Source of the DNA: Schmidtea polychroa
Lineage: Eukaryota
Assembly: GCA_044892525.1 (NCBI GenBank)
Contig: CM097885.1
Location: 24,554,001 to 24,618,000 of the forward strand
Length of the DNA stretch: 64,000 nucleotides
Direction of reading: 5' to 3'
The translations under genes were made by a program, and so were the position numbers. The notes under the pieces are model-generated. The model made no database searches. It was not told the origin of the DNA and saw nothing but the letters and a program-made list of their open reading frames with translations. Position 1 is the stretch's first letter. Every line of letters starts with the position of its first letter. Shown piece by piece: positions 50,900 through 51,628 of this stretch.

Positions 50900-51628
50900 C
50901 TAAAACTCTCTTCCTTCTGCGTGAGTACAGATTCTGCTAAAATCCTCTTCTATTCGTCTCAGATCTGCCTCAATTTCCTTCGCTTCTTTCTCCCGTCCTA
51001 ACTCCAGAGCATTATTCTTCAGCTCCTCAAATTCGCTCATTACTTCCTCATACTTGTCTTCGTATGCCTCCATTCTCCTTTGTTCTTCCCAAGGGTCCGA
51101 TCCATCTCCTAAAGCCCGGTTACGCAGACGCCCTAACGAAATCTTCCACCCTGTTCGTCTCTTGTAACCTGCCTCGAACTCAGCATCTGATACTGGACTT
51201 CCCCCTGCCAGACCCAAGACCAGATGTACCGTGGCTTCTTTCCTAACGTTATAATCTAATAACGTTAAGCCATCTTTTAATATTTTCCCCGCAAAATTAA
51301 GTTTTTGCCGACCTGGGGGTATCCCTTCTTTTTCTTGAATTTTAGCCTTTACATTCTCAATAGTATCACTTGATTCTACTTCCAAAGTTATTGTTTTTCC
51401 TGTCAATGTCTTCACGAATATTTGCATTCCACCCCTCAATCGCAAAACTAAATGCAAAGTAGACTCCTTTTGAATATTATAATCAGATAATGTTCGCCCA
51501 TCTTCTAATAGTTTCCCCGCGAAAATTAATCTTTGCTGGTCAGGTTGACTACCTTCTTTATCTTGTATTTTCGCTTTTACATTTTCTATCGTGACACTAG
51601 AGTCAACTTCGAGAGTAATTGTCTTCCC
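50900..51628 (-). pseudogene. Tandem ubiquitin (5'-truncated near-canonical unit + complete diverged unit) fused in frame to the Gag N-terminus
   Basis: GKTITLEV...[53 protein letters not shown]...[24 protein letters not shown]. Confidence 0.9.

Follow-up and report, generated by a model that had tools for sequence, protein, structure and literature searches.

The window analyzed here, a stretch of 64,000 nucleotides from Schmidtea polychroa, contains on its minus strand a long terminal repeat (LTR) element in which ubiquitin precedes Gag. Read in the direction of transcription, the element begins with a 5′ LTR remnant (51629..52028) that lacks its first ≈22 nt and ends within a Rab1-like fragment, the frame of which stops just past the junction; the remnant is a 404-nt repeat of 48002-48406 with 4 mismatches. 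It meets codon 10 of a first ubiquitin (Ub1) at a deletion junction (51625..51632) that occurs only once in the genome. The rest of the 5′ LTR, the primer-binding site, the spacer, and Ub1 codons 1-9 are missing from this copy, and the intact layout is found at loci L021-L054. What remains of Ub1 (51428..51628; Pfam PF00240) spans residues 10-76, ends in LRLRGG, has no in-frame ATG, and is joined out of frame to the Rab1 piece of the 5′ LTR; by a count made by eye, 62 of its 67 residues are those of the host ubiquitin unit. A second ubiquitin (Ub2, 51200..51427) begins at the copy's first in-frame ATG (at 51427), ends in LGLAGG, and differs from host ubiquitin at 15 positions, all at or after residue 32. 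The minus-strand frame over both domains, 50900-51640 (246 aa), contains two Pfam ubiquitin stretches (E 1.7e-54). Directly after the Gly-Gly of Ub2, Ser-Pro-Val opens a helical region (50930..51199) that can be aligned to the N-terminal part of Gag from other BEL elements. Three long helices are predicted for residues 152-241, after Ub2 (block pLDDT 62-85), in a single-sequence model that is low in confidence overall (mean 52) and in which the ubiquitin domains were not resolved.

The Gag capsid region (DUF1759), Cys-His boxes, and the start of the protease (ALLDDAS) occupy 49570..50940 on the same strand, followed by the rest of the protease and an acidic tail (48471..49601, beyond a second frameshift), a polypurine tract (48429..48444) that also precedes the 3′ LTR in other copies, and the 3′ LTR itself (47498..48428), which starts TGTTTCG and is shortened by (TA)n. 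DUF1759 (PF03564, a BEL/Pao Gag domain) lies in the frame next to the ubiquitin frame (E 2.1e-7), and gag is interrupted by a frameshift at ≈50940-50930, a stop at 50902-50900, a premature stop at ≈50767, and a frameshift near 49620. Within the 3′ LTR, a Rab1-like piece (48111-47845, minus strand; Pfam Ras, E 8e-27) and a proteasome alpha subunit piece (47859-47524; Pfam Proteasome, E 8e-18) form an in-frame mosaic. A Pfam scan of this copy found no reverse transcriptase (RT), RNase H, or integrase, and the copy has neither a target duplication nor a primer site. The first-pass annotation had described a tandem ubiquitin fused to a BEL Gag; both domains, their LRLRGG and LGLAGG ends, and the helical region are indeed present, but Ub1 is truncated, without a start codon, and the frame is broken. 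The element is a young, defective copy from which, judged by its reading frames, the full fusion protein cannot be made, and its biology is therefore to be read from the family.

A perfect 15-bp inverted repeat lies near the 5′ end of the LTR (48307-48365 and ≈51929-51987), in a part that is common to the autonomous family described below, and is a candidate packaging or transcription signal. Elsewhere in the window are a separate decayed Gypsy-type element (53925-58504; 237-nt repeats 99% identical; RT, RNase H, integrase, and zinc knuckle pieces), transposase-like frames with a Spin-doc zinc finger and DUF4371 (45082-46952), and a host-gene exon with TPR repeats (40985-41395).

Of 667 candidates for a 1-kb query, 40 were scored as matches, which gives at least 40 copies of the family in the genome; those other than the window copy are 93-96% identical, and 34 of the loci were extracted for analysis. 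Sixteen of the 34 have two full TG..CA LTRs (760-1070 nt, pairs 96-100% identical) with a polypurine tract and a primer site, which we take to be that for tRNA-iMet. Target duplications of 5 bp are clear in four of these 16; eight more (L026, L033, L041, L045, L047, L048, L050, and L051) lie in AAT/ATT microsatellites, a possible target preference. At L043 and L046, tandem elements share a common LTR, the 3′ LTR of one leading into another primer site and ubiquitin-Gag. Five ORFs of 1163-1375 aa are intact; all five open inside the 5′ LTR and encode two ubiquitins and DUF1759, and a scan of these non-autonomous ORFs found no RT, integrase, or other Pol domain.

The host-gene pieces carried in the leader vary among copies and include Rab, proteasome alpha, DSPc phosphatase, CCT chaperonin, cofilin-like, and EAP30 fragments. 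With an HSP90 piece found in a relative, this range does not bear out the ubiquitin-proteasome theme previously proposed for the cargo of the window copy. Over 444 nt, in one contiguous match, the CCT piece and the host gene are 98.6% identical, and the 39 DUSP-pattern loci examined (of 45) all match LTR cargo with no intron gap; among the 17 loci checked for intron loss in cargo, the host proteasome alpha-6 gene was absent. We infer that cargo is captured at the RNA level. A young non-autonomous subfamily (L153-L158 and L164) has an autonomous-type Gag, LTR pairs 99.8-99.9% identical, and an intact ORF of ≈1153 aa with EAP30 and proteasome cargo. At L111 and L118-L122, scattered decayed proteasome fragments, presumably alpha-4-like, stand behind a leader that resembles the 5′ part of the LTR, with no BEL polyprotein match nearby.

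In intact copies, a single ORF opens among the host-gene fragments in the 5′ LTR, reads across the primer site and then a hydrophobic spacer, and continues via ubiquitin to Gag. In 47 of 61 copies, which are related rather than independent, the Gag frame ahead of the primer site is free of stops for at least 100 codons; the other two frames are so in 2 and 0 copies. The spacer, which extends from the primer site to Ub1, is 74-87% AT. Of 31 copies (3 of the 34 loci, without the boundary motif, were excluded), 26 have a spacer whose length is a multiple of three, and all 26 spacers are free of stops, across 10 lengths and 11 of the 14 sequence types; shuffled spacers are stop-free in 1-7% of cases. 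The encoded stretch is hydrophobic and contains Cys, with Kyte-Doolittle maxima over 19-mers of 1.6-2.5 in 9 of the 10 scored types. From these patterns, the leader looks translated. A donor-like AAG/GTA opens the spacer and an acceptor-like TTTCCCCTAG/G comes after it; use of these sites would place Ub1 out of frame with the leader. Contigs from runs that may be RNA cover the element and contain no joint across the spacer.

Autonomous relatives, represented by 20 loci chosen among 150 Pao-peptidase matches, have ORFs of up to 2238 codons, a Gag ≈35% identical to the window type, and the same read-through of the primer site; in one of them (L085), RT (RVT_1), the Pao peptidase A17, and DUF5641 lie in one ORF with Gag. 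Together with DUF1759 in the window, these Pol domains uphold the earlier BEL assignment, and by its domain content the element is a BEL/Pao LTR retrotransposon. The autonomous family likewise has the ubiquitin-Gag fusion, with one ubiquitin that starts with Ser or Asn instead of Met and ends in LRLCGG; its Gly-Gly is present at 19 of the 20 loci, L093 ending in GS. The window-type Gag with its LGLAGG tail also occurs ahead of decayed Pol at L038 and L272/L059.

Beyond this genome, a Gag profile search of 1.84 billion representatives yielded five proteins with ubiquitin before Gag among the 150 cluster representatives listed, and the ubiquitin ends in LxGG in all five. Two proteins, P0153 and P0121, start inside an LxGG-type tail, which brings the public metagenome proteins with the tail to seven; in P0149, an HSP90 piece lies upstream of ubiquitin-Gag. 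None of the 27 BEL proteins from a Gag-only homologue search had a Pfam ubiquitin label, and P0121 alone among them showed the tail; a search with ubiquitin in the query returned polyubiquitin-like proteins only, among the 120 matches listed. Scans of JGI metagenomes gave 0 of 599 stretches and, in a second scan, 1 of 38, a distant BEL locus. In a quick capsid tree with long branches (88 of 97 rows; P0152, too short, was left out), the eight ubiquitin rows group with two N-terminally incomplete proteins in a single branch of 10 rows (SH-aLRT 88), suggesting one origin of ubiquitin-Gag among BEL elements.

A comparable layout is present in a Gypsy family (L173, C1:19585501-19595500; 147 matches) with variable LTR cargo, including a KIAA0319-like piece, and read-through of the primer site. 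Here, an LTR leader, a hydrophobic stretch, a ubiquitin-like domain, and Gly-Gly precede a DUF7041 Gag. The domain is recognizable (E 4.6e-8) at 29% identity to host ubiquitin, and its Gly-Gly is kept in 25 of 25 copies while residue 74 varies. The family is unrelated to BEL, and its arrangement is convergent. Among 5221 candidates (409-1302 aa) in a JGI metagenome scan, none was a homologue of the Gypsy junction at E<=0.001.

The host polyubiquitin gene, which has three units (L105:1199-1972), points to the source of the tandem. In windows of 8 codons, identity to host units 2-3 is 93-99% from codon 9 of Ub1 through ≈codon 28-31 of Ub2; beyond ≈codon 31 of Ub2, third-position identity to the host is 0.26-0.62 in five of six windows. 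The family pS of Ub1 against host unit 2 is 0.065. Ub1 is thus a recent copy of unit 2, Ub2 codons 1-≈31 come from unit 3, and the remainder of Ub2 is the element's older ubiquitin-like domain. Homologous template switching onto host polyubiquitin mRNA would have overwritten the first part of the old domain and brought in a spare Ub1. A dS/dN comparison of the old ubiquitin with the host units was dropped because the host units are saturated (pS 0.61-0.88). The host gene itself ends in RLRGG followed directly by a stop; a polyubiquitin without an extra C-terminal residue is unusual.

The tandem is therefore secondary to a single ubiquitin, and Ub1 looks dispensable. The other lineages seen all have one ubiquitin, and the tandem is not supported as the meaningful unit. 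Within the family, pN/pS is 0.68 (0.33-1.69) for Ub1, 0.30 (0.16-0.54) for Ub2, and 0.25 for Gag, pairwise values that are blurred by recombination and by decay after insertion. On these estimates, Ub1 looks near neutral and Ub2 is constrained, with a ratio similar to that of Gag. The fusion is thus neither unique to the window copy nor neutrally evolving, the two possibilities that the first-pass annotation had held against its own reading: at least 40 copies and outside lineages share it. Moreover, five of 29 copies, at separate loci, have a common G76V change in Ub1, so the canonical site is unneeded for spread, with the reservation that non-autonomous copies may move in trans. Judged from these sequences, the site that matters is the Gag-proximal Gly-Gly.

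We compared the tail of this domain across nine BEL lineages. Leu73, Gly75, and Gly76 are present in 9/9, a count that is partly circular since P0121 and P0153 were recognized by the tail alone and the profile included the tail, and for which 7/7 without those two is the safer figure; the conservation of Gly-Gly to which the earlier annotation had looked is thereby confirmed. Other positions drift: Val70 is kept in 2/9, Arg72 in 4/9, Arg74 in 3/9, Ile44 in 1/6, and Gln40 in 0/6. The residue after Gly-Gly (P1′) is Ser in five lineages, Met in two, Gly in one, and Asn in one, and never Pro. Among copies, the Ub2 Gly-Gly before Gag is kept in 27 of 29 (both losses are singletons), beside the 19 of 20 and 25 of 25 in the autonomous and Gypsy families. 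The lineages compared have a common ancestry, however, and a tail can be reset when an element recombines with host polyubiquitin. In Ub2, Arg72 and Arg74 are changed and I44N is present in 29/29 copies; Ub1, internal and truncated in the window, retains an LRLRGG-type Gly-Gly in 23/29. A conjugatable ubiquitin has LRLRGG with Arg72 and Arg74 and an intact Ile44 patch, which Ub2 lacks; the hallmark of a processing signal, Gly-Gly directly before the released protein with a P1′ other than Pro, is present at the sequence level. In the sections available of a study of USP36, Leu71 and Leu73 sit in hydrophobic pockets, a narrow channel limits cleavage to di-Gly, glutamates contact Arg72 and Arg74, and the diverged ubiquitin-like FUBI is also cut by USP16 and USP36 (PMC10611586). 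The pattern in these elements is better accounted for by a tail that a protease reads than by a tag for binding. It also counts against a poorly cleavable tag, which had been suggested from the loss of Arg72 and Arg74, since these two residues vary and Leu73, Gly75, and Gly76 do not.

We propose, with a probability of roughly 65%, that translation begins at a leader ATG and that a host ubiquitin-type protease (deubiquitinase) cuts after the Gag-proximal Gly-Gly and releases Gag. Starting at the leader ATG, Gag would at first carry 200-300 residues of variable cargo at its N-terminus; a protease reading Leu-x-Gly-Gly would then free it with a fixed, mostly small first residue. Retention of Gly-Gly across deep lineages favors this release. 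On the other side, Ub2 is without Ile44, Arg72, and Arg74, normally contacts of USPs, so most deubiquitinases may cut it poorly or slowly. In the autonomous family, the cut would expose Asn, a destabilizing N-terminal residue under the N-end rule, which counts against cleavage.

An uncut Gag-proximal domain that aids folding or solubility, or that acts together with the hydrophobic spacer to target membranes or ESCRT, with cleavage only at the canonical Ub1 site where this is present, seems unlikely. The loss of Arg72 and Arg74 from Ub2, purifying selection over the whole domain rather than the tail alone, and the hydrophobic Cys-containing stretch retained upstream would all suit such a role, and ubiquitin fused to Gag can drive budding. 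However, Leu73 and Gly75/Gly76 are outside the fold, where an uncut protein would tolerate drift, yet they are invariant, and the Ile44 patch, which ubiquitin receptors bind, is the most altered surface (I44 in 1/6, V70 in 2/9). Quite improbable, in our estimate, is an internal start at Ub2 Met1 or a spacer Met, or a spliced RNA, by which the leader would go untranslated and ubiquitin would supply a start codon and a fast-folding N-terminus. The ATG at the start of Ub2 and the splice-like ends of the spacer speak for it, but frame conservation in spacer and cargo would be left unexplained without translation, the autonomous ubiquitin opens with Ser or Asn rather than Met, and the joined splice sites would shift Ub1 out of the leader frame. 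That ubiquitin is a neutral passenger, an abundant mRNA captured in frame and open merely from lying in the Gag frame, probably holds for Ub1, whose pN/pS suits it, and capture of abundant mRNAs is routine here (the CCT piece), but for the Gag-proximal domain it appears largely refuted and is very improbable, as other cargo is swapped freely whereas ubiquitin stays at the Gag junction in lineages sharing less than 50% identity and also in a Gypsy family unrelated to them, and the Ub2 pN/pS interval excludes 1.

Retrotransposon Gag is thought to use its own ATG and its own protease. Release by deubiquitinase would make the Gag N-terminus reliant on a host ubiquitin protease, a new host dependency. 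It would also account for the continued exchange of in-frame host fragments among LTRs, from which exon shuffling and false "gene family expansions" in annotation arise at high copy number. Tentatively, and at slightly under even odds, we envisage that a BEL/Pao clade and, independently, a Gypsy family have abandoned a Gag start of their own and rely on start codons and coding pieces that the LTR has taken from host mRNAs; an old ubiquitin-like domain that cannot be conjugated would then be the place where a host protease cuts, which would render any in-frame leader harmless. If this is true, the ubiquitin junction would license wholesale capture and shuffling of gene fragments in LTRs.

Full-text searches of the literature found no description of a BEL/Pao ubiquitin-Gag fusion; Repbase reports and supplements may describe these families. 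In the main texts, as available, of PMC3118150, PMC11410931, and PMC8532177, the word "ubiquitin" occurs 0 times. According to the portions available of a BEL/Pao survey, which reports Flow families from a planarian, these elements share with ours a DUF1759 Gag, A17, RT, and DUF5641 in one ORF, TG..CA LTRs, and 5-bp duplications (de la Chaux and Wagner 2011, PMC3118150); here, by contrast, the ORF opens in the LTR and ubiquitin precedes Gag, a trait confined to one branch of related Gags. LTR-mediated retroposition, in the passages at hand, likewise joins host mRNA pieces, at times from more than one gene, to LTR elements by template switching, often in frame, but places the retrocopy between LTR pieces (Tan et al. 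2016, PMC5131818), whereas the present mosaics lie in both LTRs and in the Gag frame. The planarian giant Gypsy element Burro/GYPSM1, as described in the accessible text, is also an LTR polyprotein with a Ubi2/SUMO-like motif, although in Burro Gag forms the N-terminus and the motif comes after Gag, flanked by MATH and BCL-2 domains (PMC6431247). A diverged N-terminal ubiquitin-like domain removed at di-Gly by cross-reactive USPs is found in FUBI-eS30 and the ubiquitin-ribosomal fusions, which, in the sections available, are host genes without a variable leader rather than mobile elements (PMC10611586). A parallel in processing comes from cytopathic pestiviruses (BVDV CP1 and CP Rit), where, in the part of the paper available, captured ubiquitin serves as a processing signal and, even when N-terminally truncated behind another host fragment, yields an authentic viral N-terminus through host hydrolases (PMC8310069). 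If cleavage holds, the arrangement described here would be a retroelement counterpart of that capture, reached twice in one genome. Unlike the recent, canonical insert of an RNA virus variant, however, the domain in these elements is old, diverged, under selection, and fixed across a retrotransposon clade, and it stands before the capsid protein.
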